NCBI GenBank assembly: GCA_024404055.1
Contig: JAKSQS010000001.1
Location: 3,404-67,403, forward strand
Source: Clostridia bacterium
GTDB taxonomy: Bacteria > Bacillota > Clostridia > Oscillospirales > Acutalibacteraceae
Reading direction: 5' to 3'
DNA: 64,000 bases
Part shown: one piece after another, positions 3,404-56,590 of the stretch
How the letters are laid out: each line of letters starts with the position of its first letter
Position numbering within the stretch: position 1 is the first letter of the stretch
Notes under the pieces: generated by a model
What the model saw: the letters and a program-made list of their open reading frames with translations, nothing else
Databases searched by the model: none
Told to the model about the DNA's origin: nothing
Made by a program: the position numbers and the translations under genes

Positions 3404-3432
3404 ATTATACATTCACCTGCCGCTTTTGTCAA
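3404..3432 (-). promoter_or_regulatory. sigma-A type promoter of argGHF: TTGACA, 17 nt spacer, TATAAT
   Basis: The minus strand reads cTTGACAaaagcggcaggtgaatgTATAATcc. The -35 is the complement of 3427-3432 and the -10 is the complement of 3404-3409. It lies about 40 nt upstream of the argG ATG. Confidence 0.7.
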
Positions 3433-7586: not shown

Positions 7587-9560
7587 TTATTTGAGCTCAA
7601 ACGCGCCGGTATAAAGCTGATAGTATTTGCCCTGCTGCTCTATAAGTCCGGCATGGTTGCCCTCTTCGATAATCTCACCGTGCTCAAGCACAATAATATC
7701 ATCGGAATTTCTGACGGTGGAAAGCCTGTGCGCAATAACAAACACGGTTCTGCCCTCCATAAGCTTATCCATACCGAGCTCAATAAGCCTTTCCGTTCTT
7801 GTATCGACAGAGCTTGTTGCTTCATCGAGAATAAGCACGGGTGTATCGGCAATTGCAGCCCTCGCAATGGATATAAGCTGTCGCTGACCCTCGCTTATAT
7901 TCTGTCCGTTTGTGCCGAGCTGTGTTTCATACCCTTCGGGCAGCTTTTCAATAAAATCGTGGGCATTTGCAAGCTTTGCCGCCGCCACAACATCCTCATG
8001 CGACGCATCCAGTCTGCCGTAGCGTATATTTTCCTCCACTGTACCGGAGAACAGCTTTACATCCTGTAAAACAACCGCAAGCGAATGGCGCAGGTCGTCT
8101 TTTTTGATGTCCTTTACATCGATACCGTCGTAGGTGATTTCACCATCTTCAATATCATAAAACCTGTTAATGAGATTTGTAATCGTGGTCTTGCCCGCGC
8201 CGGTAGAACCGACAAAAGCAAGCTTTTTACCGCTTTGTGCTTCAAGGCTGATATTTTTGAGAACCGGCTCACCCTCCTTGTAGCTGAAGCTGACATTGTT
8301 AAAGCGCATAACGCCCTTTACGGGAATGCGAACTCCGTCCGGCTTCTCCCACGACCAGCCTTCGCCTTCCTCTTTTACAAGGCGAACCTCACCCTCGTCA
8401 ACCTCTCCGGGCATATCGAGAATTTCAAAAATTCTTTCCGCTCCTGCAAGCGCCGACATAAGAGAATTGTACTGTCCGGCAATGGTTGCAATCGGGTTGC
8501 CGAAGCTTTTTGAGTAATCCTTATAAACAATAAGGCTGCCGACATCCATTTTTCCTTTTATTACGAGATACGCACCCATAATAATGCTGACCGCATAATT
8601 CGCCCTTGAAATAAGCGAGAGAAGCGGCGACATAAGACCGCTGACAATGCCTGCCTTTGTTCCTGTTTTGCGATAATCCTCGGTTATTTTGAAAAATCCC
8701 TCTTTTACCTGCGCCTCATGGTTGAAAACCTTGATACATTTCAGACCTCTGATGTGCTCTTCAATATATCCCGTATAGTCACCGTTTATTTTGTGCTGCT
8801 TTTTGTAAAGCTTTGAGCTGACGGAGGATATGGATAGTATTACAAACAGCATAAGTGCAACCGTGCCGAAAAGTGTCAGCGTTATACGCCAGCTGTAATA
8901 AATCATCAGGGATATTGTAACCGCAAAGGTTATCACCGCGCTTATAAGCGAAATAAAGCCGTTACTGACAAGGGAGTTTATCGCTTCAACATCCGCATTG
9001 AAGCGGCTCATTATATCGCCCGTCTTGTGAGTGTCAAAGAAATTGAGCGGAAGGGTCTGTATATGGTCAAACAGCTCCCGGCGTATACCGTTTAATGCCT
9101 TCTGTGTAATTTTAAGCATCATCTTGCTGTATGCAAGGGTAAGAACTCCGCCGAGTATCGCAACGGCAGCAAAAATAACAAGATATTTTATAATATCAGC
9201 CACCGCCTGCTCTTTAGGAATATGCTTTTCACCCTGCATTATCGCGTATTCAAGGGTGTTGAATATCGGCTTCATCAGCACGGAGGAGCCCGCACTCATA
9301 GCCGATGAGAGGATAACGAGAAAGCACACAAAAATAATTCTTCCTCTGTACGGCTTAAGGTATGAAAGCAGTCTTTTTGTTGACTTTTTTATATCCTTGG
9401 GCTTGTTTTTGTTTTCTTTTTTCTTCTTTTCTCTTTCGGCTTTTTTCTTTTCTTTTTCAGCTTTTTTCTCTTCGGGAGTCAGCTTTTTCTTTTCTTCTTT
9501 GCTTTTTTGTTCCTTGTCTTTTTCTTCGGTCATTACATCGGGAGTTTTATTTTCTTCCAT
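7587..9560 (-). CDS. ABC exporter permease/ATPase, consensus-site subunit of a heterodimer (BmrD/TM288-like)
   Basis: 657 aa: a ~60-aa K/E-rich N-terminal tail, a 6-TM exporter domain and an NBD. Walker A GSTGAGKTT, deviant signature ISEGQRQ, Walker B plus catalytic Glu LILDEATSS. Shares nt 9560 with the stop of the upstream partner. Confidence 0.9.
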   Translation of the reverse strand: MEENKTPDVMTEEKDKEQKSKEEKKKLTPEEKKAEKEKKKAEREKKKKENKNKPKDIKKSTKRLLSYLKPYRGRIIFVCFLVILSSAMSAGSSVLMKPIFNTLEYAIMQGEKHIPKEQAVADIIKYLVIFAAVAILGGVLTLAYSKMMLKITQKALNGIRRELFDHIQTLPLNFFDTHKTGDIMSRFNADVEAINSLVSNGFISLISAVITFAVTISLMIYYSWRITLTLFGTVALMLFVILSISSVSSKLYKKQHKINGDYTGYIEEHIRGLKCIKVFNHEAQVKEGFFKITEDYRKTGTKAGIVSGLMSPLLSLISRANYAVSIIMGAYLVIKGKMDVGSLIVYKDYSKSFGNPIATIAGQYNSLMSALAGAERIFEILDMPGEVDEGEVRLVKEEGEGWSWEKPDGVRIPVKGVMRFNNVSFSYKEGEPVLKNISLEAQSGKKLAFVGSTGAGKTTITNLINRFYDIEDGEITYDGIDVKDIKKDDLRHSLAVVLQDVKLFSGTVEENIRYGRLDASHEDVVAAAKLANAHDFIEKLPEGYETQLGTNGQNISEGQRQLISIARAAIADTPVLILDEATSSVDTRTERLIELGMDKLMEGRTVFVIAHRLSTVRNSDDIIVLEHGEIIEEGNHAGLIEQQGKYYQLYTGAFELK

Positions 9561-11332
9561 TATGCAAGCACTCCTTCCTGCTGTGACTGATAAATTTCTT
9601 TGTAAATTTCGTTATTTTCCAAAAGCTCCTCATGCGTGCCGACAGCGTTTATTCTTCCGTTTTCAACAATAACAATCCTGTCTGCATCCATAACGGAGGT
9701 TATGCGCTGTGCGATGATTATTTTTGTTGCCTGTTTCAGCTCATCGCTTTTAAGTGCCTGTCTTATTTTCGCCTCGGTCTCGGTGTCAACCGCCGAGGTG
9801 GAATCATCTAAAATCAGTATTTTCGGTTTTTTGATAAGTGCCCTCGCAATGCAAAGTCTCTGCTTCTGTCCGCCGGACACATTTACGCCGCCCGCACCGA
9901 GAACGGTTTCATACCCATCGTTAAATTCATTGATGAACCCGTCCGCCTGCGCCATTTTACAGGCGTTTATAACTTCTTCGTCTGTCGCGTCGTTCTTGCC
10001 CCAGCGGATATTTTCTCTGATAGTCCCTGAGAAAAGAATATTCTGCTGAAGCACCATAGAAACGGCTTCTCTTAAATTAAACATCGTATAATTCTTTATG
10101 TTGTGTCCGCCGACGCATACCTCGCCGCTTTCCGCGTCATAAAGACGGGAAATAAGCTGTACAAGGGTGGATTTTCCCGCGCCCGTGCCGCCGATAACGC
10201 CTATTGTTTCGCCTGAATTGATTTTAAGGCTGACATTTTCAAGTATCGGCTTAAGTGCTTTTTGTGAATAACGGAACGATACATTTTTAAATTCAATGCT
10301 GCCGTCCTCCACCGTAAGCGTTTCATCCGCTTCGTCATCCCTGACCGCAGGCACATCCATAAGAACCTCTTTAACACGCGTAAGTGATGCCTTTGCCGCA
10401 ATGATGCTGACAAAAATCATCAGCACTGACATCAGTGAGGTAAGCACCGACATAATACAGCCGACAAGTGTGGTCAGCTTGCCAGGGGTGAGAGCGAAAT
10501 TATCAATCGGATTATAGAAATTATCTATAATAGACATGGAGCCGCTCCACAGCGCAAAGCCCATACACGCATACATGATTATCATAATAGCCGGTGTGAG
10601 GAAAAGCAGCATATTCTGACTTTTAAGGTTCCATTTCAGAATATCATCGTTAGCGGTATTGAATTTTTCACGCTCATAATCCTCACGCACAAAGTTTTTA
10701 ACAACTCTTATTCCGTTGGAATTCTGTCTGACAACGGAATTGAAACGGTCTGTCTTTTCCATAAGCTTTTTGAAAAGCGGAACCGCAATAACCGCAAGCA
10801 CAACAAGCACGGCAACAAGGGCGGGTACGGAATAAACAAACACCATATACATATTTGTGCCCTTGCACAGCTCCAACGCCTTAACAAGCGCAATAACAAC
10901 CATAATCGGACCTTTTATAAAGCTTATCATCAATGCCTGAAACACGGTCTGTATGGAATTTATATCTCTTGTGACACGGGTTATGAGCGATGTGGAAGAA
11001 AACTTGTTTATGTTTTCAAACGAGAAATCCTGTACATGACAGAAAATGGCTTTTCTTGCGTTTGTGCTGAAGCCTACACTCGCCTTTGTTGCGCATATGT
11101 TTGCCGCCACACCTATGGCAAGGGTTGTAAGTGTGTAAAGCATCATTTTAATAAGCATGGATTTCACACCGCTCATATCTCCGCTTTCGCCCATCTGGTA
11201 AAGCACATCAACAAGTCCGCCCGTAATATCAAGCAGCTCAACATCAATCGCAACATCAAGAATGATGAACAGCGGACACAGAACAGTATAAATCCAATAG
11301 CCTTTGACGAATTTTATGCATTTTTTAAACAA
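9560..11332 (-). CDS. ABC exporter permease/ATPase, degenerate-site subunit (BmrC/TM287-like)
   Basis: 590 aa with a TTG start 9 nt after AAAGGAGG. Walker A GGTGAGKST, canonical signature VSGGQKQR, Walker B ILILDDSTSAVD with Asp in place of the catalytic Glu. Confidence 0.9.
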   Translation of the reverse strand: MFKKCIKFVKGYWIYTVLCPLFIILDVAIDVELLDITGGLVDVLYQMGESGDMSGVKSMLIKMMLYTLTTLAIGVAANICATKASVGFSTNARKAIFCHVQDFSFENINKFSSTSLITRVTRDINSIQTVFQALMISFIKGPIMVVIALVKALELCKGTNMYMVFVYSVPALVAVLVVLAVIAVPLFKKLMEKTDRFNSVVRQNSNGIRVVKNFVREDYEREKFNTANDDILKWNLKSQNMLLFLTPAIMIIMYACMGFALWSGSMSIIDNFYNPIDNFALTPGKLTTLVGCIMSVLTSLMSVLMIFVSIIAAKASLTRVKEVLMDVPAVRDDEADETLTVEDGSIEFKNVSFRYSQKALKPILENVSLKINSGETIGVIGGTGAGKSTLVQLISRLYDAESGEVCVGGHNIKNYTMFNLREAVSMVLQQNILFSGTIRENIRWGKNDATDEEVINACKMAQADGFINEFNDGYETVLGAGGVNVSGGQKQRLCIARALIKKPKILILDDSTSAVDTETEAKIRQALKSDELKQATKIIIAQRITSVMDADRIVIVENGRINAVGTHEELLENNEIYKEIYQSQQEGVLA

Positions 11333-11384
11333 TCCGCAAAACCTCCTTTAATGGAATTGCATATATACACCCGTATTTAGAATT

Positions 11385-11413
11385 ATAATACAACATTTTC
11401 GAGCTTTAGTCAA
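11385..11413 (-). promoter_or_regulatory. candidate internal promoter for the second ABC pair: TTGACT, 17 nt spacer, TATTAT
   Basis: The minus strand reads TTGACTaaagctcgaaaatgttgTATTATaat, immediately after the stop of the 11415-13409 gene. Confidence 0.45.
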
Positions 11414-11414
11414 C

Positions 11415-13409
11415 TCACTCTAATTCAAACGCGCCCGTATAAAGTCTGTAATACTGTCCCTTCTGTTCAATCAGCCTGTCATGGTCGCCGCGCTCTATAA
11501 TTCTTCCGTGGTCAAGCACCATGATAACATCTGAATTTCTGACCGTAGAAAGCCTGTGGGCAATAACAAACACCGTTCTGCCCTCCATAAGCTTATCCAT
11601 GCCGCGCTGAACGAGTGCTTCCGTTCTCGTGTCGATTGAAGAGGTTGCCTCGTCAAGAATCATAACCGGCGGATCCGCAACGGCTGCTCTCGCAATGGAT
11701 ATGAGCTGACGCTGACCCTGTGAAAGATTTGCACCGTTGGAGGTCAGCATGGTATTGTAGCCGTCCGGCAGACGTGTGATGAAATCATGCGCGTTTGCAA
11801 GCTTTGCCGCCGCTATGCATTCCTCGTCCGTCGCGTCCAGCTTGCCGTAACGGATGTTATCCATAACCGTTCCCGTAAACAGGTTTACATCCTGCAAAAC
11901 AATGCCGAGGCTTCGCCTTAAATCGGATTTTTTGATTTTGTTGATATTTATGCCGTCATAGCGGATTTTTCCGTCCGCAATATCGTAAAAGCGGTTGATA
12001 AGGTTTGTTATCGTGGTTTTACCTGCGCCGGTCGCGCCGACAAACGCGACCTTCTGTCCGGGCTTTGCGTAAAGAGTAATGTCGTGAAGCACAGGCTTAC
12101 CCTCAACATATTCAAAATCAACATGGTCAAGCACAACATCACCCTCAAGGCGGGTGTATGTAACGGTGCCGTCTGCCGCGTGCGGATGCTTCCACGCCCA
12201 GTGACCGGTACGCTCTTCACATTCAACGATTTTACCGTTTTCCTCACGGCAGTTGACAAGCTTTACATAACCCTCATCCGTTTCCGGCTTTTCATCTATA
12301 ATTGAGAAAATTCTCTGTGCGCCTGCCATAGCCATCGCTATGGAGTTTATCTGCTGTGAAGCCTGATTGACCTGTCCCGTGAACTGCTTACACATACCGA
12401 GATATGAAGCAACAACGGGAATTGCAAGCGGCGCAAGCACCGACCCGGTTGAGATTATATTTTCAATGGATATGTTCGGGATTTTTCCGTTTGAGCAAAT
12501 GAGTATACCGCCGACAAACGCGGTGCTGACATAAAGGAGGTTGCCGATATTATTCATAATCGGTCCGAAAATATTTGCAAAGGTGTGTGCGCTTTCGGCA
12601 TCCTTAAACAGCTCCTCATTAACCTTGTCAAAATCAGCCTTTGCCTGATTTTCATGGCAGAATACCTTGACAACCTTCTGACCGTTCATCATTTCTTCAA
12701 CATAGCCCTCAACCTTGCCGACGGCTCTCTGCTGCTTCATGAAGAACTTTGCGGAATTTCCGCCAACCTTTTTTGTCACATTTGTCATTATGATAACGCC
12801 GAAAATGACCACTATCATAAGTGAAACGCTGTAATAAATCATCACGCAAATGAGCACCGCAAGTGTTATGCAGGCTGAAAAAATGCTCGGAATGCCCTGT
12901 GAAATAAGCTGACGGAGAGTATCAATATCATTGGTGTAAAAGCTCATAATATCGCCGTGAGTATTCCTGTCAAAATACTTTATGGGCAAATCCTCCATCT
13001 TCTCAAACATACGCTTGCGCATATTGTCAAGAAAGCCCTGTGTTGTAAAGGCGAGAAGCTGCGCCTGTGTTGCGTTTGCCGCAATGCCCACAATAAACAG
13101 CCCTATCATCAGCGTCAGAATGTGAATAACATCGGGTCTGACTGTATTCCACGCTTCGGCATAGCTCATTGTTTTGCAAAGCTCAAGGCCCTTGACGATA
13201 TAGCTTGTTATGTTTTCAATATACACCGCCGGCATAACGCCGATAACCGCGTTTATGATTATGCAGATGAATATTCCGGCAAGCTTTCCCGGAAAATCGT
13301 GAAACAGTAATTTCAGAAGTCTGAAAAGCATTTTGAAGTCCATAACGGGCTTGCCCTTGGCGTTTAGCTTCACATTGCCGTTAGCCGGCATTTTCATTCC
13401 TCTTGCCAT
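11415..13409 (-). CDS. ABC exporter permease/ATPase, consensus-site subunit (paralog of 7587-9560)
   Basis: 664 aa. Walker A GATGAGKTT, deviant signature LSQGQRQ, VMILDEATSSID. The C-terminal NBD is near-identical in blocks to the 7587 protein (LMEGRTVFVIAHRLSTVRNSD..LYTGAFEL). Confidence 0.9.
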   Translation of the reverse strand: MARGMKMPANGNVKLNAKGKPVMDFKMLFRLLKLLFHDFPGKLAGIFICIIINAVIGVMPAVYIENITSYIVKGLELCKTMSYAEAWNTVRPDVIHILTLMIGLFIVGIAANATQAQLLAFTTQGFLDNMRKRMFEKMEDLPIKYFDRNTHGDIMSFYTNDIDTLRQLISQGIPSIFSACITLAVLICVMIYYSVSLMIVVIFGVIIMTNVTKKVGGNSAKFFMKQQRAVGKVEGYVEEMMNGQKVVKVFCHENQAKADFDKVNEELFKDAESAHTFANIFGPIMNNIGNLLYVSTAFVGGILICSNGKIPNISIENIISTGSVLAPLAIPVVASYLGMCKQFTGQVNQASQQINSIAMAMAGAQRIFSIIDEKPETDEGYVKLVNCREENGKIVECEERTGHWAWKHPHAADGTVTYTRLEGDVVLDHVDFEYVEGKPVLHDITLYAKPGQKVAFVGATGAGKTTITNLINRFYDIADGKIRYDGININKIKKSDLRRSLGIVLQDVNLFTGTVMDNIRYGKLDATDEECIAAAKLANAHDFITRLPDGYNTMLTSNGANLSQGQRQLISIARAAVADPPVMILDEATSSIDTRTEALVQRGMDKLMEGRTVFVIAHRLSTVRNSDVIMVLDHGRIIERGDHDRLIEQKGQYYRLYTGAFELE

Positions 13410-42099: not shown

Positions 42100-42107
42100 A
42101 ATATTAT

Positions 42108-42223
<116 letters not shown>

Positions 42224-43107: not shown

Positions 43108-43299
43108 TATATTAACCTCCGTTTCCGAATTCTGTTCAAAAAATGTTAATAATGTGTTAACAGCGTGTTATTATATAATATGTTTTTTTAAGATATTATA
43201 TAGTTTAGCATATTGCGGCTGTTTTTTCAAGACACCGTTTTCATAAGTCTAAATTCTGAAAGGAAAAACGCTTCTTTACCGAAGCGTCGGGTAAAAAAC

Positions 43300-46200
43300 A
43301 TGAATAAAAAAATTATTTCGGCATTTATGGCGGTGCTTATGTGCGCATCCGTTGTTTTTTCGGTGCCGTTTTATTCTTTTGCCGAACAAATAAAAGCAGA
43401 TGCTCTTTCCGCTGCGCTGGAAGCCGTACCCGATGTGAGCACATGGGGGCAGTATATTGATACCTCCGCGCTTGAAAAAGCCGTAAAGGAGGCAGACCGC
43501 TGTCTGGCAGATACATCGGGTGAGATTACGCAGCAGGAAATAGACAATGCCGTTAATGCAATCAACAATGCAGTCGCCGCACTTGAAAAGCATACGACCG
43601 GAATAACCCTCAACCCCACTTCTTTAAATATTGCGACAGGCGAAACCGATGTCATAAAGACCGTTCTCACCCCGGCAGACGGTGCTGACACGGTCAAGTG
43701 GAGCGTTTCCTCGCCCGCCGTTAAAATAGTCGACCAATCAAACTATGGCTGTCAGCTTAAGGCGGAGTCGTATAGTGCCTCACCCGTCACGGTAACGGCA
43801 AGCTGCAACGGCAAAACCGTCTCATGCAAAATAAATATACTTAATCCTGCAAAAACCGCTGTTGTTACCGTATCGCCGACATCCGCATACAGAACAAAAA
43901 CGGCACAGGCAGCCGCCAAGGCGTACGGTGCTGACGGGAATCTCTCCACGGACAGCATTTCATGGCAGTGGACAAGCAGTGACCCCGCCGTTGCAGATAT
44001 AACCTCCGTAACAGGTGTTATTACCTGTAAAAAAACCGGGCACTGCACAATTACCGCAACGGGTATTTTCAACGGCGGCACTGTTAAGGGCAGCACTGAA
44101 TTTTATGTAAATGATTTTACACCAATCAAATCTCTCACTCCTGTCAACACGCTGATTTCAAAAACAATGACCATGGTGGAAGGCACCTCGCTTTCATATG
44201 AGGTACGCATTTCCGACGGCGCAACAATAAAGGAGCTTGCATGGGGCACAACAAATAAGTCCGTTCTTACAGTAAGCAATCCGAAGGTGAACGGCTATGT
44301 CGCAAGCGCAACAATAAAGGCGGTCAAAAGCGGAAAAGCCACACTTACAATAAAAGCAACCGACGGAAGCGATATAACCAGAAACATTTCCGTAACGGTT
44401 CTGCCGAAGGTAAGCTCAATAAAGCTTGATGCATCTGTGCTTGTGCTTAATCCCGGGCAGACCAAAAAGCTTTCCGCGACAATATCACCTTCAAACGCCG
44501 GCAATCAGAACATCAACTGGTCAAGCTCGGACAAATCGGTGTGCTCGGTAGATTATAAGGGAAATCTTACCGCAAAAGCAGTCGGTGTATGCAACATATT
44601 TGCCCAGGCTGCGGACGGCTCCGGCAAAAAAGCAATATGCTGCGTAAGGGTAGCTGATCCTTCCGCGCAGATAATTATTTCAAAAAAATCCGTTTCAATG
44701 AAGACGGGCAGCACGGTTTCCGTCACGGCAACCGTAAAAACGGTAACCGGCAAAAGCTATGCCACCACAAATGAGGTAAACTGGAAAAGCTCGAAAACGG
44801 CAGTCGCCTCCGTTTCATCCTCCGGCAAAATCACCGCGAAAGCGGCAGGCACGGCAACGATCACTGCTTATGCAAAGGATAACGCTGATATAAAAACAAC
44901 CTGCAAGGTCACGGTTGTAACACCCGTCACGGGGTTGAAGCTCAATTACACTTCTTTTAAAATCGGTGTCGGCAGCGCAAAAACCGTTACTCCCGCGGTT
45001 CTGCCGGAAAACGCCTCCGACAGGTCGGTTACATGGACAAGCTCAAATAAAGCGGTTGCCACTGTATCATCAACAGGCACGGTCGCCGGCGTAAAGCCCG
45101 GCACCGCAACCGTAATCTGTAAAACCACAGACGGCGGTTTCACGGCAAAATGCACAGTCACGGTAATCAGTCCCGTCACATCCGTAAAGCTTTCATCCAC
45201 CTCGCTCAAAATATATACCGGCAGCTCAAAAACCATCACGGCAACCGTCTCACCCTCAACCGCAACGGATAAAAGTGTTACCTTTAAATCCTCTGATACA
45301 AAGATTGCCACCGTTTCGTCAACCGGCACGGTAAAGGGCATAAAAGCAGGCAGTGCCGTTATAACCGTTAAATCGGCAGACGGAAAATGCTCTGCGCAAT
45401 GTGCCGTAACAGTGCAGCAAAGGGTTACCGGCATAAATCTTGACGCGACAAAGGTCTGCTATATCGGTCAGGTATGCTCCCTGAACGCAACGGTTACTCC
45501 TGCCGACGCAAGCAACAAAAAGCTTATCTATGCAAGCTCAAACACATCGGTTGCCACAGTCACTGAAACCGGCTTTGTTACGGCAAAGAAAAAAGGCAGT
45601 ACTGCCGTCACTGTAAAAAGTGCGGACGGCGGTTACACAGCCACCTGCTTAATTACCGTAACACCAAAGGTCAGTGCAACCGGTTTCAAATTCAGTGTCA
45701 GTCAGAAATCACTTAAAACCGGTGAAAAATACACCTTAAAGCCCCTCTTCTCACCCTCTGATACCAGCGAAAAGGGCGTATCGTATAAATCGGATAATCC
45801 GGCTGTTGCCACAGTGAGCTCCGCGGGAAAAATCACAGCCAAAGGACCCGGCACCTGCACCGTTACGGGTATATCGGCAGACGGCGGCTTTGTTGCAAAA
45901 TGCAAGATTACCGTAACACAGCCTGTCACCGGCGTAAGCTTTCCTCTTTCCTCTTACAGGGTTGCCGCAGACAAATCAATTTCTCTCAAGCCCAATGTTC
46001 TTCCGGCAAATGCGTCAAACAAGTCCCTGAAATGGAAATCAAGCAATAAGGAAATCGCCACAGTAAGCTCCAAGGGCACTGTAAAAGGTATCAAAACCGG
46101 CACCTGCCAAATCACCTGTACCACGGCAGACGGCGGCTTTACCGCAACCTGCACCGTTGAGATTTACAAAGAAGTCACCGCAGTAAAGCTCACAAAAACC

Positions 46201-48642
46201 AAGGTGAGCCTTGCCACCGGCAAACAGATAGTGCTTGTTGCAAAATTCACCCCGGCAGACGCAACGAACAAAACGCTTACATGGAAAACCTCAAATTCCT
46301 CCGTTGCCTCGGTCAGTGCATCGGGCAAGGTCAGGGGTGTAAGCGCAGGCACGGCGGTTATCACCTGCAAAACAGCAGACGGCGGCTACACCGCGAAATG
46401 CACCGTCTCCGTTTTCCGTCCCTCGACCGGCGTAACACTCAATTATGCGTCAGTCAGGCTCGATGCCGGAAAAGAAAAAACGCTGAAAGCAACGGTTACG
46501 CCGCAAAACGCAACCTATAAAACCGTTAAATGGAATTCCTCCGACCCGACGGTAGTTTCCGTTGACAAAAACGGAAAGCTTACCGCGCTAAAATCCGGCA
46601 CATCAAGAATTTCCGCAGTCAGCAAGGACGGATATAGCTCGGGCTACTGCTCGGTAACAGTGGTTCAGCCGCCGAAAAAGGTTACCGTAAAGGCTTCAAC
46701 TACAAAGCTCGATTTAGGCTGCGCGACACAGCTCAAGGCAACCGTTTCTCCCTCCGACTCATACAGCAAGGATGTTGTATGGACATCCTCAGACACCGAA
46801 AAAGCAACTGTCAGTGCCTCAGGCGTTGACACGGCTAAAAATGCAGGCAAGGTTACCATAACCTGTACAACAGTTGCCGGAGCCAAAAAAGCGGAAACGG
46901 AAATACTCTGTAAAATTCCGCCGGAAGCAATAAAGCTCAATAAAACATCCGCCACACTTCTGCTTAACAAGAGCACAACGCTTAAAGCCTCGTTCACACC
47001 TGCCGATACAACAATAAAAACCGTTAAATGGTCTTCAAGCAACCCGTCTGTCGTAAAGGTCAGCTCCGGCGGCAAGGTAACGGCGGTTGCCATAGGTTCT
47101 GCCACAATCACCGCCAAATCCTCAGACGGCGGACTGAAAGCCACCTGCTTCATCACGGTTCCGAGAAGAGCCACCGGCATCAGGCTGAACAAAACGAGCG
47201 CAAATGTTGACCTGAACGGAAAATACACATTGAAAGCGACCGTGCTTCCTGCCGACGCAACCTATGACGATGTAACATGGTCAAGCTCAAACAGGAGCAT
47301 AGCGACCGTCAGCTCCGAGGGCGTTGTCACAGGAAAAGCACTCGGGAAAGCCATAATCACCGCAACAAGCGTGGACGGCGGATTTAAAAAGAGCTGCGCC
47401 GTTACGGTCATTATTCCTCCGTCATCAGTTAAAATTTCCAAAACCTCCGCAACGGTAAATGTCGGCGGAAGTCTGACGCTTAAGGCGACCGTGCTTCCGT
47501 CAAACGCGGCAAATAAAACAGTAACATGGAAATCCTCCGATACATCCGTGGCAACCGTCACAAACGGCAAAGTGATAACAAAAAAATCCGGCACAGTCAC
47601 AATCTATGCCGTTTCCTCCAAAAGCACGGTAAAGGCAGCCTGCAAAATAAAGGTTATTGTGCCGGTTACGGGCATTAAGCTCAACAAAACCGCCGCATCG
47701 GTTTACACCGGCTCCACACTGACGCTGACCTCTTCCGTCAGTCCCTCAAACGCATCCGTTAAAACCGTTAAATGGAGCTCATCCGATAAGTCCGTTGCTA
47801 CGGTTACATCAGCAGGTGTTGTAAAAGGAATATCAGCAGGAACAGCCGTCATAACCTGTAAAACCGACAGCGGAGCCAAAACCGCCGCCTGCACTGTAAC
47901 AGTCAAAAAAGCTGTTTCGGGCGTATCTCTCAACATCACCTCAAAAACCGCAGACGCGGGCACGGCATTTGCGCTCAAAGCATCCGTTCTCCCCGCAGAC
48001 GCAACAAATAAAGCCGTAACTTGGTCTTCGTCAAACAGCGCGGTTGCAAAAGTCAGCTCCTCAGGCGTTGTAACCCTGCTTTCGGCAGGTACAGCTAAAA
48101 TAACCGTTAAAACAGCGGATAAGAGCAAAACCGCCGTCTGTACCGTAACTGTTAAACAGCCCGTGAAGGAAATTTTGCTCAAAGGCAGTATACGCACCGC
48201 ATATAACTCCGAATTTAAGCTGACGGCAACCGTAAAGCCGTCAAACGCAACAGACAAAACACTGAAATGGTCTTCCTCAGACAAAAGCATACTTACCGTT
48301 GACCAAAACGGAAATGTGAAGGTTACAGGCACGGGAACGGCACAGATCAAATGCACTGATTCAACGGGAAAGATAAGTGCGGTATGCACGGTCACCGCTG
48401 ATGAGATAATTTCGCTCAATCAGACTGCCGTCACCCTCGGTATAGGCGAAAAATTCAGCCTTTCAGCCGAGGTGCTTCCGTTGACAAATGTACAGGAGGT
48501 TACATTTGAATCTAAGAACACGGACATAGCCACGGTTTCCGAATATGGCGAAATAATTGCCTGCAACCCCGGTCAGGCAGTCATAATTGTACAAAGTAAA
48601 AATTCCGGCGCGACTGCAACCTGCGTTATAACAGTAGAATAA
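43300..48642 (+). CDS. giant secreted protein: signal peptide, helical N-terminal module, then 20 tandem Big_2 (bacterial Ig-like group 2) domains
   Basis: The start is trimmed to MNKKIISAFMAVLMCASVVFSVPFYSFA. I counted 20 repeats of the ~85-aa pattern ..VTWxSSNxxVATVSSxGxVxGxxxGTAxIT..DGGxTAxCxVTV. No LPXTG, SLH, dockerin or catalytic domain recognised. Confidence 0.85.
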   Translation: MNKKIISAFMAVLMCASVVFSVPFYSFAEQIKADALSAALEAVPDVSTWGQYIDTSALEKAVKEADRCLADTSGEITQQEIDNAVNAINNAVAALEKHTTGITLNPTSLNIATGETDVIKTVLTPADGADTVKWSVSSPAVKIVDQSNYGCQLKAESYSASPVTVTASCNGKTVSCKINILNPAKTAVVTVSPTSAYRTKTAQAAAKAYGADGNLSTDSISWQWTSSDPAVADITSVTGVITCKKTGHCTITATGIFNGGTVKGSTEFYVNDFTPIKSLTPVNTLISKTMTMVEGTSLSYEVRISDGATIKELAWGTTNKSVLTVSNPKVNGYVASATIKAVKSGKATLTIKATDGSDITRNISVTVLPKVSSIKLDASVLVLNPGQTKKLSATISPSNAGNQNINWSSSDKSVCSVDYKGNLTAKAVGVCNIFAQAADGSGKKAICCVRVADPSAQIIISKKSVSMKTGSTVSVTATVKTVTGKSYATTNEVNWKSSKTAVASVSSSGKITAKAAGTATITAYAKDNADIKTTCKVTVVTPVTGLKLNYTSFKIGVGSAKTVTPAVLPENASDRSVTWTSSNKAVATVSSTGTVAGVKPGTATVICKTTDGGFTAKCTVTVISPVTSVKLSSTSLKIYTGSSKTITATVSPSTATDKSVTFKSSDTKIATVSSTGTVKGIKAGSAVITVKSADGKCSAQCAVTVQQRVTGINLDATKVCYIGQVCSLNATVTPADASNKKLIYASSNTSVATVTETGFVTAKKKGSTAVTVKSADGGYTATCLITVTPKVSATGFKFSVSQKSLKTGEKYTLKPLFSPSDTSEKGVSYKSDNPAVATVSSAGKITAKGPGTCTVTGISADGGFVAKCKITVTQPVTGVSFPLSSYRVAADKSISLKPNVLPANASNKSLKWKSSNKEIATVSSKGTVKGIKTGTCQITCTTADGGFTATCTVEIYKEVTAVKLTKTKVSLATGKQIVLVAKFTPADATNKTLTWKTSNSSVASVSASGKVRGVSAGTAVITCKTADGGYTAKCTVSVFRPSTGVTLNYASVRLDAGKEKTLKATVTPQNATYKTVKWNSSDPTVVSVDKNGKLTALKSGTSRISAVSKDGYSSGYCSVTVVQPPKKVTVKASTTKLDLGCATQLKATVSPSDSYSKDVVWTSSDTEKATVSASGVDTAKNAGKVTITCTTVAGAKKAETEILCKIPPEAIKLNKTSATLLLNKSTTLKASFTPADTTIKTVKWSSSNPSVVKVSSGGKVTAVAIGSATITAKSSDGGLKATCFITVPRRATGIRLNKTSANVDLNGKYTLKATVLPADATYDDVTWSSSNRSIATVSSEGVVTGKALGKAIITATSVDGGFKKSCAVTVIIPPSSVKISKTSATVNVGGSLTLKATVLPSNAANKTVTWKSSDTSVATVTNGKVITKKSGTVTIYAVSSKSTVKAACKIKVIVPVTGIKLNKTAASVYTGSTLTLTSSVSPSNASVKTVKWSSSDKSVATVTSAGVVKGISAGTAVITCKTDSGAKTAACTVTVKKAVSGVSLNITSKTADAGTAFALKASVLPADATNKAVTWSSSNSAVAKVSSSGVVTLLSAGTAKITVKTADKSKTAVCTVTVKQPVKEILLKGSIRTAYNSEFKLTATVKPSNATDKTLKWSSSDKSILTVDQNGNVKVTGTGTAQIKCTDSTGKISAVCTVTADEIISLNQTAVTLGIGEKFSLSAEVLPLTNVQEVTFESKNTDIATVSEYGEIIACNPGQAVIIVQSKNSGATATCVITVE

Positions 48643-48835: not shown

Positions 48836-49588
48836 GTGGAAAGCGTAAAGAAACATGAAGATAACGAGCTGATAACCGGCAGAAACGCGGTTATCGAAGC
48901 ACTGCGTTCCGGCAGAACAATAGATACTCTGCTTGTGGCAAGGGGCGAGCGCACGGGCTCCGTAAACAGTATAATCGCTGCTTGTAAAGAAAAAAATGTG
49001 GTTATCAAGCAGGTGGATATAAAAAAACTTGATTTTCTCTGCGGCAGGGACAATCATCAGGGTGTCGCGGCATATGCCGCAGCCCGTGAATATGCAAGTG
49101 TTGATGATATATTTTCCCGGGCGGAAGAAAAAAATGAGCCTCCGTTCATCATTATTTGTGATGAAATTGAAGACCCTCATAATTTAGGTGCAATAATCCG
49201 TACCGCTGATGCAGCGGGAGCTCACGGAATCATCATCCCGGAGCGCAGAAGCGCGTCACTGAGCTTTTCCGTTGCCAAAACAAGCGCGGGTGCAGTGGAA
49301 TATATGCCCGTCGCCCGTGTGGGCAATCTCGCCTCAACCATAGAGGAACTGAAAAAAAGAGGCGTATGGATATACGGCGCAGACATGGACGGGGAAAACT
49401 GCTTCACAACCGAATTTGACGGCTCCGTGGCACTGGTAGTCGGCAGTGAAGGGCACGGAATAGGCAGACTGATAAAAGAAAAATGCGATTTTATCGTTTC
49501 CCTTCCCATGAAGGGGCATATAAATTCCCTTAACGCCTCTGTTGCGGCAGGAATAGTGATGTATGAAATATCACGGCAGAGAACCTGA
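48836..49588 (+). CDS. rlmB: 23S rRNA (guanosine-2'-O)-methyltransferase, RlmB/TrmH group 3
   Basis: N-terminal substrate-binding domain (ITGRNAVIEAL..) and SpoU motifs DEIEDPHNLGAIIRTA, VVGSEGHGI and SLNASVAAGI. GTG start after GGGGGA, with an extended -10 TGATATAAT at 48795-48803. Confidence 0.85.
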   Translation: MESVKKHEDNELITGRNAVIEALRSGRTIDTLLVARGERTGSVNSIIAACKEKNVVIKQVDIKKLDFLCGRDNHQGVAAYAAAREYASVDDIFSRAEEKNEPPFIIICDEIEDPHNLGAIIRTADAAGAHGIIIPERRSASLSFSVAKTSAGAVEYMPVARVGNLASTIEELKKRGVWIYGADMDGENCFTTEFDGSVALVVGSEGHGIGRLIKEKCDFIVSLPMKGHINSLNASVAAGIVMYEISRQRT

Positions 49589-49610
49589 AAAACGAAAGGA
49601 AATACAAGCT

Positions 49611-52013
49611 ATGGCTGATAATAACGGCAGCTTTTCACTTGACGATATACTAAATGATATTAAACGGGAAAGAGAAATAAAAGCCGGACTTATTGAGCAA
49701 ACGCCTGACGAAGAAAAACCGCAGGCAGAACCCGACAAAACCATTTACCGTACAAAGAATAACATTGATGAACTGCTTGAAGAATATCTGTACGGCGGAA
49801 GCGAAAAAAAGTCCCCCGTACCCGGAAGGGAAAAAACAAAGTATATTTCTATAGGCAAAGAGGATGAAGCCGCACAGCCTGTAAAAGCCGAAGGAGCTCA
49901 TGCAGACAATGAAGATGACGGACAAATGCAGATTCCGGGTTTTTCGGAAAAAGACCCCTCTGTCACTCCGGATATTGTTTCCGAGGAGGAAGCGGAGCAG
50001 GAGCTTATTGACCGCAGGAAAAAAAGGATAGACGAATTTCGTGTGTTTGCCGCCGGAATAAGCGACGAATCGCTGCTTGAAATAGAGCAGAAGGAAGAAA
50101 AACGCGGCAGAAAGCGCGCTGAGATTTTTAACAGCATAGAGCTCAAAAACGGTCAGGGGCTTTTCGATGCGGTAGACGGTGTTGAAGAAAAAAAGAAAAA
50201 GAAGAAAAACTCCGTAAACTTTTTCCTTGCTCACAGTCCCGCAAAATCCGCACGGGAAAAAGCCCGTAAGGAAGCGGGCGAAAGAAACCGTTTTAACGCA
50301 AAGGCACAGAAAAAAATAACCGAAGAAATGAAAACGAAAGCAAAGTTTTCCGCCGTTATGTCCGGCATTATCACGGCGGTGCTTGTTTTCCTTGCGGCTC
50401 TCCCCCATTTTTACCGTGAAGGCGGCGCACTTGAAACACTTCTGGGCGGCAGCGGCAGAATATATCTCGGCATGAATCTCGCACTGATAATTCTTGCCGT
50501 TTCGCTTTCATATGATACGGTGCGCTCAAGCGTTAAATCAATTATGAACCTGACGCTGAACGCGGACACAGCAGTGCTTATTGCCCTTTTCTTTTCCGCG
50601 CTGCACAACATTGCTCTTTTGATAAAAGGCGGGTTTACCGAATACGGCTCAACACTGTATAACAGTGCCGCCTCGTTTTCGCTTTTACTTAACAGCATAA
50701 CAAAGCTTTTTGTTTCAAAGCGAATGGAAGTAAACCTTACAACGCTTACAAAAAACAAGCAGCTCCGTTCGGTGCAGGCAATAGAAAACAGGGCTGATGC
50801 CAAACAGCTTGCATACGGAATTTCAACAAACGGCAATCCCGAAATTCTTTACTCTGCCGAAACTCAGATACCGGAGAATTTTTCCGACATTTCATCAGAC
50901 AGAAGCCCGGAGGAAAGATTTTTTGCGTACGCAATACCCGTAATACTTATTGTAAGTGTAATAGCCGGAATTATAGGGGCAATTTTCAGAAAAGACATTT
51001 TCGGCTTTATAACAGGCTACACGGGTTGTATATGCATATGCTTCCCGGTGAGCATGGCATTTATTTCAAATTATCTTATTCTCCGCTGCAACTTATCAGC
51101 GTGTAACGACGGCAGTGCCATACTCGGGTATGCAGGCATATCCGATATGGAAAAAACAAACGCTTTTATTATGGATTCAGGCGAAATTTTTTACGGTGAG
51201 GTATCAAACTTTCACACGGTCAAAGCCTCTGCCATTATGACTGAGGAAGCAGCGATAACCTACACGGGTGCGGTGCTTATAAAAGGGAACTGTGTACTGT
51301 CCGATGTTTTTGCGCAGATAATCGAGCAGCAAAACATCCGTCTGCCTGCCGTTGAGGATCTTAAATATGAGGACAGGCTTGGTTTTTCTGCATGGGTAAA
51401 CGATGTTAAGGTGCTTGTGGGCAACCGCGATATGATGACACAGCACAATGTGGAGCTTCCCCCTCTCACGGATAAAGAAAGAGACGGCAGTGCCGAAACA
51501 GGTACAATGTATGTTGCGGTGGAGCAAAAGCTTGCCGCCATGTTCAATGTGCGCTACCTTATGGGCAAAAATGTCGCAAGGCAGGTCAGAAGGCTCACCG
51601 ATAACGGTGTTGTTCTCATGCTTATGACAAGAGACCCCGGCATAACGGAGGAATTTGTTTCCGCATACGCGAAAATCAAAAGCGACAGCATAAAGATAAC
51701 AAATTCAAAGGGCTGCGACATCATGCGGCTTTATAACGGCAGTATTCCGAGAAAGAAAGAAAGCGGTCTGATATGCAAAAGCTCCTCGGGCTCCTTGTTA
51801 AGGCTTATAAATGCCGCGTTCAGACTGGTTAACGCCGACAGACAGGCATCTATCATACAGGCAATCGGCATTATATGCGCCGCCGTAATCAGCATCGCCT
51901 TCACTCTCGCAGCACCTCACGGTTTTTTAAATCCGATATTTATTATAGTATATCAAATAATCTGGGGCGTTGTTTCCTGTGTCGTTTCGGAAAAAACTCT
52001 CAACAAAAAATAA
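49611..52013 (+). CDS. P1B-type ATPase-like membrane protein lacking all catalytic motifs (probable pseudoenzyme) with a ~250-aa charged N-terminal region
   Basis: The start is trimmed to MADNNGSF. The TM core and P/N-domain-like region are collinear with heavy-metal ATPases: GCICICFPVSMAF .. NDGSAILGYAGISDMEKTNAFIMDSGEI .. VKVLVGNRDMMTQHNV .. VVLMLMTRDPGITEE .. two C-terminal TM helices. DKTGT, TGES, TGDN and GDGxND are all absent. Confidence 0.6.
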   Translation: MADNNGSFSLDDILNDIKREREIKAGLIEQTPDEEKPQAEPDKTIYRTKNNIDELLEEYLYGGSEKKSPVPGREKTKYISIGKEDEAAQPVKAEGAHADNEDDGQMQIPGFSEKDPSVTPDIVSEEEAEQELIDRRKKRIDEFRVFAAGISDESLLEIEQKEEKRGRKRAEIFNSIELKNGQGLFDAVDGVEEKKKKKKNSVNFFLAHSPAKSAREKARKEAGERNRFNAKAQKKITEEMKTKAKFSAVMSGIITAVLVFLAALPHFYREGGALETLLGGSGRIYLGMNLALIILAVSLSYDTVRSSVKSIMNLTLNADTAVLIALFFSALHNIALLIKGGFTEYGSTLYNSAASFSLLLNSITKLFVSKRMEVNLTTLTKNKQLRSVQAIENRADAKQLAYGISTNGNPEILYSAETQIPENFSDISSDRSPEERFFAYAIPVILIVSVIAGIIGAIFRKDIFGFITGYTGCICICFPVSMAFISNYLILRCNLSACNDGSAILGYAGISDMEKTNAFIMDSGEIFYGEVSNFHTVKASAIMTEEAAITYTGAVLIKGNCVLSDVFAQIIEQQNIRLPAVEDLKYEDRLGFSAWVNDVKVLVGNRDMMTQHNVELPPLTDKERDGSAETGTMYVAVEQKLAAMFNVRYLMGKNVARQVRRLTDNGVVLMLMTRDPGITEEFVSAYAKIKSDSIKITNSKGCDIMRLYNGSIPRKKESGLICKSSSGSLLRLINAAFRLVNADRQASIIQAIGIICAAVISIAFTLAAPHGFLNPIFIIVYQIIWGVVSCVVSEKTLNKK

Positions 52014-52030: not shown

Positions 52031-52721
52031 ATGAGCGATATAATCCGCGTTGAGGGACTTTCCAAGTCCTATGGCAAAAAAACAGTTCTTACAGACCTGA
52101 ATCTTTCACTTGAGGCAGGTCAGATAATCGGTCTTCTCGGTCCTAACGGCTGCGGCAAAACCACTCTTATAAAAATCCTCACGGGTCTTATTAAGGACCA
52201 TGACGGCATTGTGAATATTGACGGACAGCGTCCGGGTCCCTATACAAAAAGCATTGTTGCGTATCTTCCCGAAAAATCCTATCTTCCCGAATGGATGCGC
52301 CCGGTTGACGCGCTGGATTACTTCAATGATTTTTATTCGGACTTTGACAGAAAAAAAGCCGAATACATGGCACAGCATTTTTCCATTGACATGAAACAGA
52401 AGGTTAAAACCATGTCAAAAGGTCAACAGGAAAAATTGGGACTGATTCTCGTCATGTCAAGAAGCGCAAAGCTTTATATTCTTGACGAACCTCTCGGCGG
52501 CGTTGACCCGGCGGCAAGGAGCGTTATACTTGACCTGATAATGAAAAACTATGCGGAAAATTCCACGGTAATGCTCTCCACCCACCTTATAAACGATGTT
52601 GAAAGAATATTTAACAGAGTTCTTATGATAAACGGCGGAAAAATCGTCGTAAATTCCGATGTTGACGCTTTCCGTCAGCAGGGCAAAACTGTTGAAGATG
52701 TTTTCAAGGAGGTATTCGCAT

Positions 52722-52732
<11 letters not shown>
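52031..52732 (+). CDS. ABC transporter ATP-binding protein (ABC-2/Ccm-like single NBD)
   Basis: The start is trimmed to MSDIIRVEGLSKSYG, after AAAGGTG. Walker A GPNGCGKTT, signature MSKGQQEK, Walker B LYILDEPLGGVD. Confidence 0.88.

Positions 52733-56590
<3,858 letters not shown>

Follow-up and report, generated by a model that had tools for sequence, protein, structure and literature searches.

A pseudoenzyme offshoot of the P1B ATPases encoded directly downstream of rlmB in a Clostridia bacterium

A protein that is collinear with copper pumps, and in which no canonical pump motif is intact, raises the question of what a P-type ATPase body can be kept for once the pump cycle is in doubt. Such a protein is encoded in a 64,000-nucleotide stretch of DNA from a Clostridia bacterium of the Acutalibacteraceae (assembly GCA_024404055.1, contig JAKSQS010000001.1, forward-strand positions 3,404 to 67,403), hereafter the window, in which all positions below are counted. 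The gene in question, together with the evidence that defines it, is the following.

49611..52013, + strand: pseudo-P1B-ATPase gene, 800 amino acids (aa) plus stop; open reading frame (ORF), homology and predicted fold

A sequence-only reading of this DNA had described an intact 800-aa frame here, and the frame is indeed sound: it is open without interruption over 49563..52013 (+), the ATG at 49611 yields the 800-aa form, and the product (the query protein) is present at NCBI as 'MAG: hypothetical protein MJ177_00205 [Clostridia bacterium]' (MAG, metagenome-assembled genome). A relative that is 78% identical begins with the same MADNNGSFSLDDIL as the query protein, and its ORF is likewise intact. 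As set out below, the query protein is a pseudoenzyme offshoot of the P1B ATPases, the heavy-metal branch of the P-type superfamily.

The question of descent can be approached through sequence, profiles and fold. Pfam gave no match for the query protein, including to E1-E2_ATPase and Hydrolase, and when ten core sequences of its family were submitted, one of the ten matched E1-E2_ATPase/Hydrolase (E = 0.006). The NCBIfam CopA model (NF007952) aligned query residues 439-689 collinearly with positions 442-693 of its 838 at E = 5.6e-10, with a score of 38 against a cutoff of 1316 and hence below the curated family threshold; the P1B subfamily model TIGR01525 also remained below its threshold (E = 4e-9, 35.9 bits against a cutoff of 346). 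A phmmer search of all sequences in the Protein Data Bank (PDB) returned a single match, the Legionella CopA 3rfu (E = 5e-9). With a ten-member family profile, the same protein, LpCopA, was matched at 9.6e-28, and all 18 matches were P-type ATPases with copper pumps on top. In an hhalign comparison with a true P1B ATPase, the probability reached 98.6% (E = 1.3e-15), so the profile similarity to P-type ATPases whose absence would have spoken against the sequence-only reading was detected. The similarity to P1B ATPases is well beyond chance and is collinear.

The predicted fold leads to the same relatives. An AlphaFold2 (AF2) model of residues 241-800 was obtained with a predicted local distance difference test score (pLDDT) of 81.5 and a predicted template-modelling score (pTM) of 0.77. 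With this core model, Foldseek ranked CopA, ATP7B and ZntA best (CopA E = 1e-17; TM-score up to 0.61), followed by KdpB and then by P2/P3 pumps, and it aligned approximately 670 columns of the model to the whole of CopA. A Foldseek search against viral structures gave only weak matches to giant-virus P-type ATPases, which are irrelevant here. Together, AF2 and hydropathy place eight transmembrane (TM) helices in the order four TM helices, a stub left of the actuator (A) domain, two TM helices, a phosphorylation/nucleotide-binding (P/N) module and two TM helices. Collinearity with P1B ATPases had been claimed from the metal-site helix onward. Sequence, profile and fold bear out the collinearity itself, whereas its starting point was misplaced: because the model and the hydropathy reproduce the full P1B layout, it begins at helix MA. 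The two C-terminal TM helices of the earlier description are seen in both the model and the hydropathy. The parts of the core are listed below.

50334..50753, + strand: equivalents of MA, MB, M1 and M2, aa 242-381; AF2 helices at aa 242-267, 282-312, 318-339 and 351-381, and hydropathy
50754..50906, + strand: shortened A-domain remnant without TGES, aa 382-432; two strands and short helices in AF2
50907..51110, + strand: M3 and M4, aa 433-500; alignments, with C475-x3-P479 of M4 at the CPC location (P479 at nucleotides (nt) 51045-51047)
51111..51785, + strand: degenerate P/N module, haloacid dehalogenase (HAD)-like and nucleotide-binding-like, aa 501-725; alignment register and column counts
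51786..52001, + strand: M5 and M6, aa 726-797; AF2 helices at aa 726-767 and 775-797, and hydropathy

The P/N module has three landmarks: the DKTGT site is occupied by D522 (nt 51174-51176), the TGD site is occupied by T673-R-D675 (nt 51627-51635), and VLVGNR spans aa 601-606. The end of the A-domain remnant aligns to the CopA segment 'IVQMVSDAQRSRAPIQ' in the phmmer comparison with the PDB.

What has become of the catalytic machinery depends on the register in which the motifs are read. Three independent and mutually agreeing alignments (phmmer against the PDB, hhalign, and the family profile against the PDB) fix that register, and they move two of the proposed equivalents. The segment 'MEKTNA' had been taken for the DKTGT loop; in the alignments, its MEK pairs with a MEK that CopA itself carries a few residues before the loop, and the true site reads D522-S-G-E-I, in which the acceptor Asp is present and KTGT is lost. 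Similarly, the 'CIC' proposed as the counterpart of CPC lies just upstream of the actual position, F478-P479-V480, which has retained the Pro but neither Cys. Other parts of the earlier motif survey hold. The VGN..LM block is kept as VLVGNRDMM, with G604 invariant in the family (148/148), and the TGD hinge is altered, as had been said, to T673-R-D675, a partial retention. SEHP has no aligned equivalent in the query protein, and of GDGxND one position is left (S in the query protein, G in the family), with both Asp gone; the reported absence of these two motifs is thus upheld by the lack of an intact copy in the query protein and in any of the 228 family members. The A-domain is reduced and lacks TGES, as described, the insert between M2 and M3 comprising only about 50 residues in the AF2 model. 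The statement that every catalytic motif had been erased is right insofar as no canonical motif is intact but overstated, since D522, T673-x-D675 and P479 survive.

These losses are a property of the family rather than of one strain. Motifs were examined in 228 members, and DKTGT, TGES, GDGxND, CPC and SEHP were found in none of them (0/228). Orthologs with an intact DKTGT, which would have indicated strain-specific decay, are accordingly missing from this set. Looser variants do occur among the 228, namely [SAC]PC in four, CP[CHSG] in three and HP[LI] in four. In true P-type ATPases, the phospho-acceptor Asp is invariant and defines the superfamily. In the family, the D522 column holds Asp in 104 of 148 members (about 70%), the remainder carrying G, N, E or S, and in 53 of 80 genes of an independent species-level sample; the family consensus after this position runs [AS]-x-[DE]-[LI]-[FY]-P. 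No metal-ligand set is recognizable in the family columns, which contain neither CPC nor a conserved Met, His or Cys cluster in M5 or M6. Six of eight defining P-type/P1B features tested are lacking and the topology is present; therefore, the query protein is not to be filed as a P1B ATPase.

Conversely, a different set of positions is held with great consistency. Among the 148 aligned members, G591 and G604 occur in all 148, D675 in 146, Y634 in 145, P479 and E587 in 143 each, R606 in 142, [TS]673 in 136, K538 in 135 and C475 in 113, while G724, the sole remnant of GDGxND, occurs in 139 and is S in the query protein. The 148-member set provides the unbiased figures, as the 80-gene sample was pre-selected with a DNA pattern that fixed E587, G591, W595 and G604 and restricted R600, N605 and R606, so that conservation at these positions is biased there.

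Selection on the gene was gauged against the 78%-identical relative. Over the whole gene, the ratio of nonsynonymous to synonymous divergence (dN/dS) is 0.094; by region, it amounts to 0.18 in the N-terminal tail, 0.093 in the TM helices and their loops, here called the TM regions, and 0.041 in the cytoplasmic P/N module. With dS at about 1.5, near saturation, these values are approximate, yet they are far below 1. Purifying selection is thus strong, and it is strongest in the degenerate P/N module. The family is also large. In a HMMER scan with the core profile over 1.84 billion representative proteins, clustered at 50% identity, at least 2,524 representative clusters matched at E<=1e-30. The best 150 matches (E<1e-133) all span the entire 558-position core, with N-terminal extensions of very different length, and members range from 503 to 1778 aa. 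There is no Pfam or NCBIfam model for the family, whose annotation is 'hypothetical' only. The view of the query protein as a maintained pseudoenzyme and not a decaying pseudogene is therefore sustained by family size, by the absence of intact motifs from all 228 members and by dN/dS values of 0.09 overall and 0.04 in the cytoplasmic module.

To survey hosts and gene surroundings, species-representative genomes were searched with a degenerate DNA pattern taken from the most conserved block, which gave at least 120 loci, all 120 of them confirmed by tblastn. Among the matches listed, nearly all titled loci are from Clostridia of the Oscillospiraceae/Ruminococcaceae type; titles include Oscillospiraceae, Ruminococcaceae, Acutalibacteraceae, Ruminococcus, Gemmiger, Faecalibacterium, Anaerotruncus, Negativibacillus and others, and cultured carriers include Ruminococcus flavefaciens 007c, Hominimerdicola aceti and Merdimmobilis hominis. 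The host range is read as the Oscillospirales group, and the carriers are Clostridia of the gut and rumen. Family genes were also seen outside the Oscillospiraceae/Ruminococcaceae group, in bins labelled 'uncultured Bacteroides sp.' (L071) and '[Ruminococcus] torques' (L037); mis-binning or mislabelling is more likely here than real occurrence.

The immediate surroundings of the gene in the window are as follows.

48836..49588, + strand: rlmB, 23S rRNA Gm2251 2'-O-methyltransferase of the SpoU family; TIGR00186 RlmB, Pfam SpoU_sub_bind and SpoU_methylase
49589..49610, + strand: 22-nt spacer between rlmB and the pseudo-ATPase gene; Shine-Dalgarno-like AGGA at 49597-49600, 10 nt before the ATG
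52031..52732, + strand: ATP-binding cassette (ABC) transporter ATP-binding protein gene, 17 nt 3' of the pseudo-ATPase gene; Pfam ABC_tran, 1.3e-24

The tight packing noted by the sequence-only reading is borne out, as the pseudo-ATPase gene is separated from rlmB by 22 nt and from the ABC gene by 17 nt; the rlmB product matches TIGR00186 with 254 bits against a cutoff of 160. A promoter and terminator scan of the window, the output of which was about that expected from shuffled sequence, placed no plus-strand terminator-like site between rlmB and the pseudo-ATPase gene, and Rfam and tRNA scans gave no regulatory RNA near the latter. On its 3' side, a tightly spaced series on the same strand (52031..56590) comprises the ABC ATPase gene, a 296-aa polytopic membrane ORF with only a weak Pfam match (ABC2_membrane_4), and a glycoside hydrolase family 2 (GH2) beta-galactosidase gene.

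Which of these neighbours belongs to the pseudo-ATPase gene is decided by comparison between species. Among the matches listed, 75 loci were testable, with the 5' end of the ORF present and at least 800 nt of upstream sequence, and in 74 of the 75 the family gene is immediately preceded, on its own strand, by an rlmB homologue, at a median gap of 37 nt. The sole exception is L027 (Oscillospiraceae MAG Lab288P3bin47), in which no upstream rlmB homologue was found. The linkage extends to all six of six divergent members, 17-26% identical to the query protein, each of which has a SpoU/RlmB-type gene upstream on the same strand at a gap of 16-43 nt; their other neighbours vary. By contrast, a link to the downstream ABC pair, which had been suggested for checking, does not hold family-wide, an ABC homologue lying downstream in only 6-8 of the 83 listed loci with enough sequence. 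Five of the six divergent members have other downstream genes (infC; an EF-G-like gene; rpsR, on the opposite strand; ALGX). The order rlmB, pseudo-ATPase gene, ABC, permease and GH2 recurs in L001 (the last three at 8796..13369), whose pseudo-ATPase is only 26% identical to the query protein, which suggests that the arrangement downstream of the pseudo-ATPase gene (ABC, membrane ORF, GH2) is a subclade-level cluster. Because 74 of 75 loci carry rlmB upstream while downstream genes vary, the conserved partner is rlmB and not the ABC pair, and the two genes form a stable unit.

Several further observations concern the downstream side. In 15 of the 83 listed loci (about 18%; e.g., L039, L059 and L085), the pseudo-ATPase gene is followed at a distance of 200-800 nt by a same-strand gene for an EF-G-like GTPase, as it also is in L003 and L004/L005. 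In other loci, infC-rpmI-rplT, rpsR-ssb-rpsF, prfB or pth is nearby, which together with rlmB gives a loose translation theme. As family-wide downstream partners, the ABC pair, the EF-G-like gene and IF3 were all rejected. A link to sporulation was rejected as well, with spoIIE near the gene in L002 and in 4 of the 120 loci listed.

Two side observations concern the window upstream of rlmB. Just 5' of that gene lies an ORF of 1,809 aa (43213..48642, +), the translation of which, judged by eye, has a signal-peptide-like N-terminus and about 20 tandem immunoglobulin-like repeats of about 85 aa with the recurrent pattern '...SSN.SVATVS..G.VT..K.G.A.IT...DG...A.C.VTV'; the product looks like a large surface or adhesin protein. 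Farther away, at 42107..42223 (-), a 5S rRNA gene stands alone (Rfam RF00001, 89.5 bits); as Rfam and tRNA scans gave no 16S, 23S or tRNA match across the 64-kb window, this gene looks like an orphan copy.

In front of the core, the query protein carries a long tail in the place that metal-binding domains occupy in P1B ATPases. Its features are these.

49611..50333, + strand: charged, mostly disordered cytoplasmic region, aa 1-241; composition, pLDDT and lack of a hydrophobic segment
49635..49661, + strand: N-terminal short linear motif S-L-D-D-I-L-N-D-I, aa 9-17; family motif count and AF2 helix
49917..49943, + strand: subclade-specific linker motif D-G-Q-M-Q-I-P-G-F, aa 103-111; count of [DE]GQ-x3-5-G-F

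A charged and probably disordered N-terminus had been described, and this is what is found over about 240 residues: 41% of aa 1-250 are charged, no hydrophobic segment is present, and pLDDT is below 50 at aa 1-9, 25-124, 143-152 and 167-226. The N-terminal 250 aa contain no Cys, and Pfam matched no domain of any kind, an HMA (CxxC) domain included, in the N-terminus of the query protein or of the six longest members (1,470-1,780 aa). Family-wide, the tail is rich in E, K, A, P and D. Near its start, AF2 predicts a helix at aa 10-26 (pLDDT about 67). Of 211 full-length members, 45% (strict form) or 62% (loose form) have a hydrophobic residue (phi) followed by [DE][DE]-I-L among their first 40 aa, compared with 0.1% and 2.9% in shuffled sequences and 0.5-2% and 2-9% in other 40-residue windows. 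The linker motif [DE]GQ-x3-5-G-F with an acidic stretch is present in 29 of 225 members. A fuller form, [DE]-G-Q-x-x-[LI]-x-G-F, then the acidic stretch and 'E-x-x-L-x-x-x-R-K', marks a subclade that includes the query protein.

What the protein is for can be addressed only in graded terms. We give a probability of roughly 55% to the reading that the query protein, as a member of a large family derived from copper-type (P1B) ATPases that has given up the pump cycle, is a non-pumping pseudo-ATPase serving as a membrane scaffold or conformational sensor. The features of a pseudoenzyme are present, namely clear homology, missing catalytic residues and purifying selection; inactivity itself we infer from sequence. 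The E1P/E2P cycle, ATP hydrolysis and metal pumping are probably not performed, because 30% of members can do without the acceptor Asp and because the family has lost the Mg2+ ligands, the TGES loop and the greater part of the A-domain. The complete eight-helix membrane domain, with the Pro that kinks M4, and the fold of the P- and N-domains have been kept, while the metal-binding, phosphate-accepting or -hydrolysing and Mg2+-coordinating residues have been lost or altered, the A-domain cut down to its stub, and the metal-binding domains exchanged for the long disordered tail with an acidic-hydrophobic helix motif at its extreme N-terminus. The P/N module, as the most constrained part, would bind a ligand or partner through K538, E587, R600, R606, Y634 and D675, and a cytoplasmic partner would be brought in by the motif in the tail. 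The rlmB and pseudo-ATPase genes would be co-transcribed as a two-gene unit whose surroundings are reshuffled. Given the rlmB linkage, RlmB or large-subunit ribosome biogenesis is the first candidate for a functional partner, possibly tied to the tail motif, although this assignment is speculative.

Several points weigh against this interpretation. D522, T673 and D675 are kept in the query protein, which may permit a non-canonical phospho-chemistry. The scaffold or sensor role was arrived at by eliminating alternatives and by drawing on the example of other pseudoenzymes, and the partner in it is hypothetical. The linkage to rlmB could reflect only shared transcription of housekeeping genes, with neither a physical nor a functional tie between the products. 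In addition, the query protein differs from the consensus at five near-invariant positions (G307S, F376L, E622K, N677G and G724S), and its lineage is a somewhat divergent branch of the family.

The retained residues are the starting point for one competing explanation, in which the protein remains a working transporter, driven by ATP from a non-canonical catalytic site: D522 (E in some members) would be phosphorylated with the aid of T/S673-x-D675-x-N677-x-T679, and the substrate would be other than a soft metal. The near-fixation of D675 and [TS]673, the whole P/N fold with all eight TM helices, and the fact that the cytoplasmic module is the most constrained part are all in keeping with such a site. 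However, in about 30% of members the acceptor position holds a residue other than Asp (G, N and S among them), KTGT, both Asp of GDGxND that serve as Mg2+ ligands, the HP motif and the TGES loop are missing in 228 of 228, and the A-domain is down to about 50 residues, which makes this explanation improbable. Somewhat better placed, though still unlikely, is an ATP-independent device built on the P1B membrane domain, either a passive channel or carrier or a ligand receptor, with the cytoplasmic module acting only as output or plug. In its favour are the eight helices with their M4 Pro (143/148) and C475 (113/148), the polar Q750 in M5 and W785 in M6, and the dN/dS of 0.09 in the TM regions. Yet constraint is weaker in these regions (0.093) than in the cytoplasmic module (0.041), the metal-ligand set is lacking, and we know of no P1B membrane domain that conducts without an ATPase cycle.

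The remaining two explanations fare worse on the comparative evidence. An accessory subunit of the downstream ABC transporter would fit the 17-nt gap in the window, the recurrence of the gene order in L001 and an unannotated gene 16 nt downstream in the closest relative (L128), at the contig end; the scarcity of ABC homologues at the other loci, including five of the six divergent members, largely refutes it for the family and leaves it very improbable. A decaying pseudogene, or a copA inactivated in this strain, could be argued from the degeneracy of all canonical motifs and the blank Pfam result, but it is already refuted, and hardly credible, in view of the intact 2.4-kb ORF, the dN/dS of 0.09, the thousands of full-length relatives, the absence of intact motifs from all 228 members examined and the conserved synteny.

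Beyond the scaffold or sensor reading lies a bolder and improbable proposal: across a whole bacterial order, what was once a copper pump would now serve, without catalysis, as a receptor or scaffold in the membrane whose function is coupled to RlmB and 50S biogenesis. By means of the disordered tail and its N-terminal motif, such a protein might hold rRNA modification or ribosome assembly at the membrane or regulate them there, possibly upon sensing of a ligand by the dead P/N or membrane domain. If true, this would newly connect ribosome maturation with the membrane and would be, to our knowledge, the first prokaryotic P-type pseudo-ATPase family. The observations are of interest for other reasons as well. 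The family is large, amounting at 50% identity to at least 2,500 clusters, and it is unannotated in a group abundant in human and animal guts; rlmB with the pseudo-ATPase gene is among the most stable gene pairs in the loci examined. The family constitutes a natural experiment on the capacities of the P-type fold without the pump cycle, it offers a concrete annotation target as a new family model, and culturable carriers make its function testable.

A full-text literature search found no description of a bacterial P-type pseudo-ATPase family or of its pairing with rlmB; known systems can nevertheless be set beside it. The best matches in sequence, profile and fold are P1B-1 CopA proteins (LpCopA 3rfu/4bbj, Archaeoglobus fulgidus CopA and human ATP7B). 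CopA and the query protein have in common the number and order of the eight TM helices, the M4 Pro, a P-domain of Rossmann-like fold into which the N-domain is inserted, the T-x-D hinge and the block 'VxVGN..LM'. The CopA A-domain comprises roughly 110-125 residues. Unlike CopA, the query protein has an A-domain of about 50 residues without TGES, a disordered tail in place of an HMA domain, no CPC cysteines and no SEHP/HP, and it scores far below the family cutoffs; in the family, DKTGT is down to D (in 70% of members) and GDGxND to one Gly. KdpB and the P2 and P3 ATPases share the general P-type fold with the query protein and appear as secondary Foldseek matches (E 1e-10 to 1e-7), but they are weaker matches than the P1B ATPases, have other TM counts and are all catalytically competent. 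The nearest conceptual parallel found, and a conceptual one only, is in alveolate guanylate cyclases such as Toxoplasma TgATPaseP-GC, in which a P4-ATPase-like domain is reported to be part of a signalling protein (PMC6592433, PMC13466520). There, too, a P-type body appears to be reused in signalling rather than as a plain pump, whereas these proteins are eukaryotic, P4-derived and fused to cyclase domains, and are related to the query protein in sequence only at the level of the superfamily.

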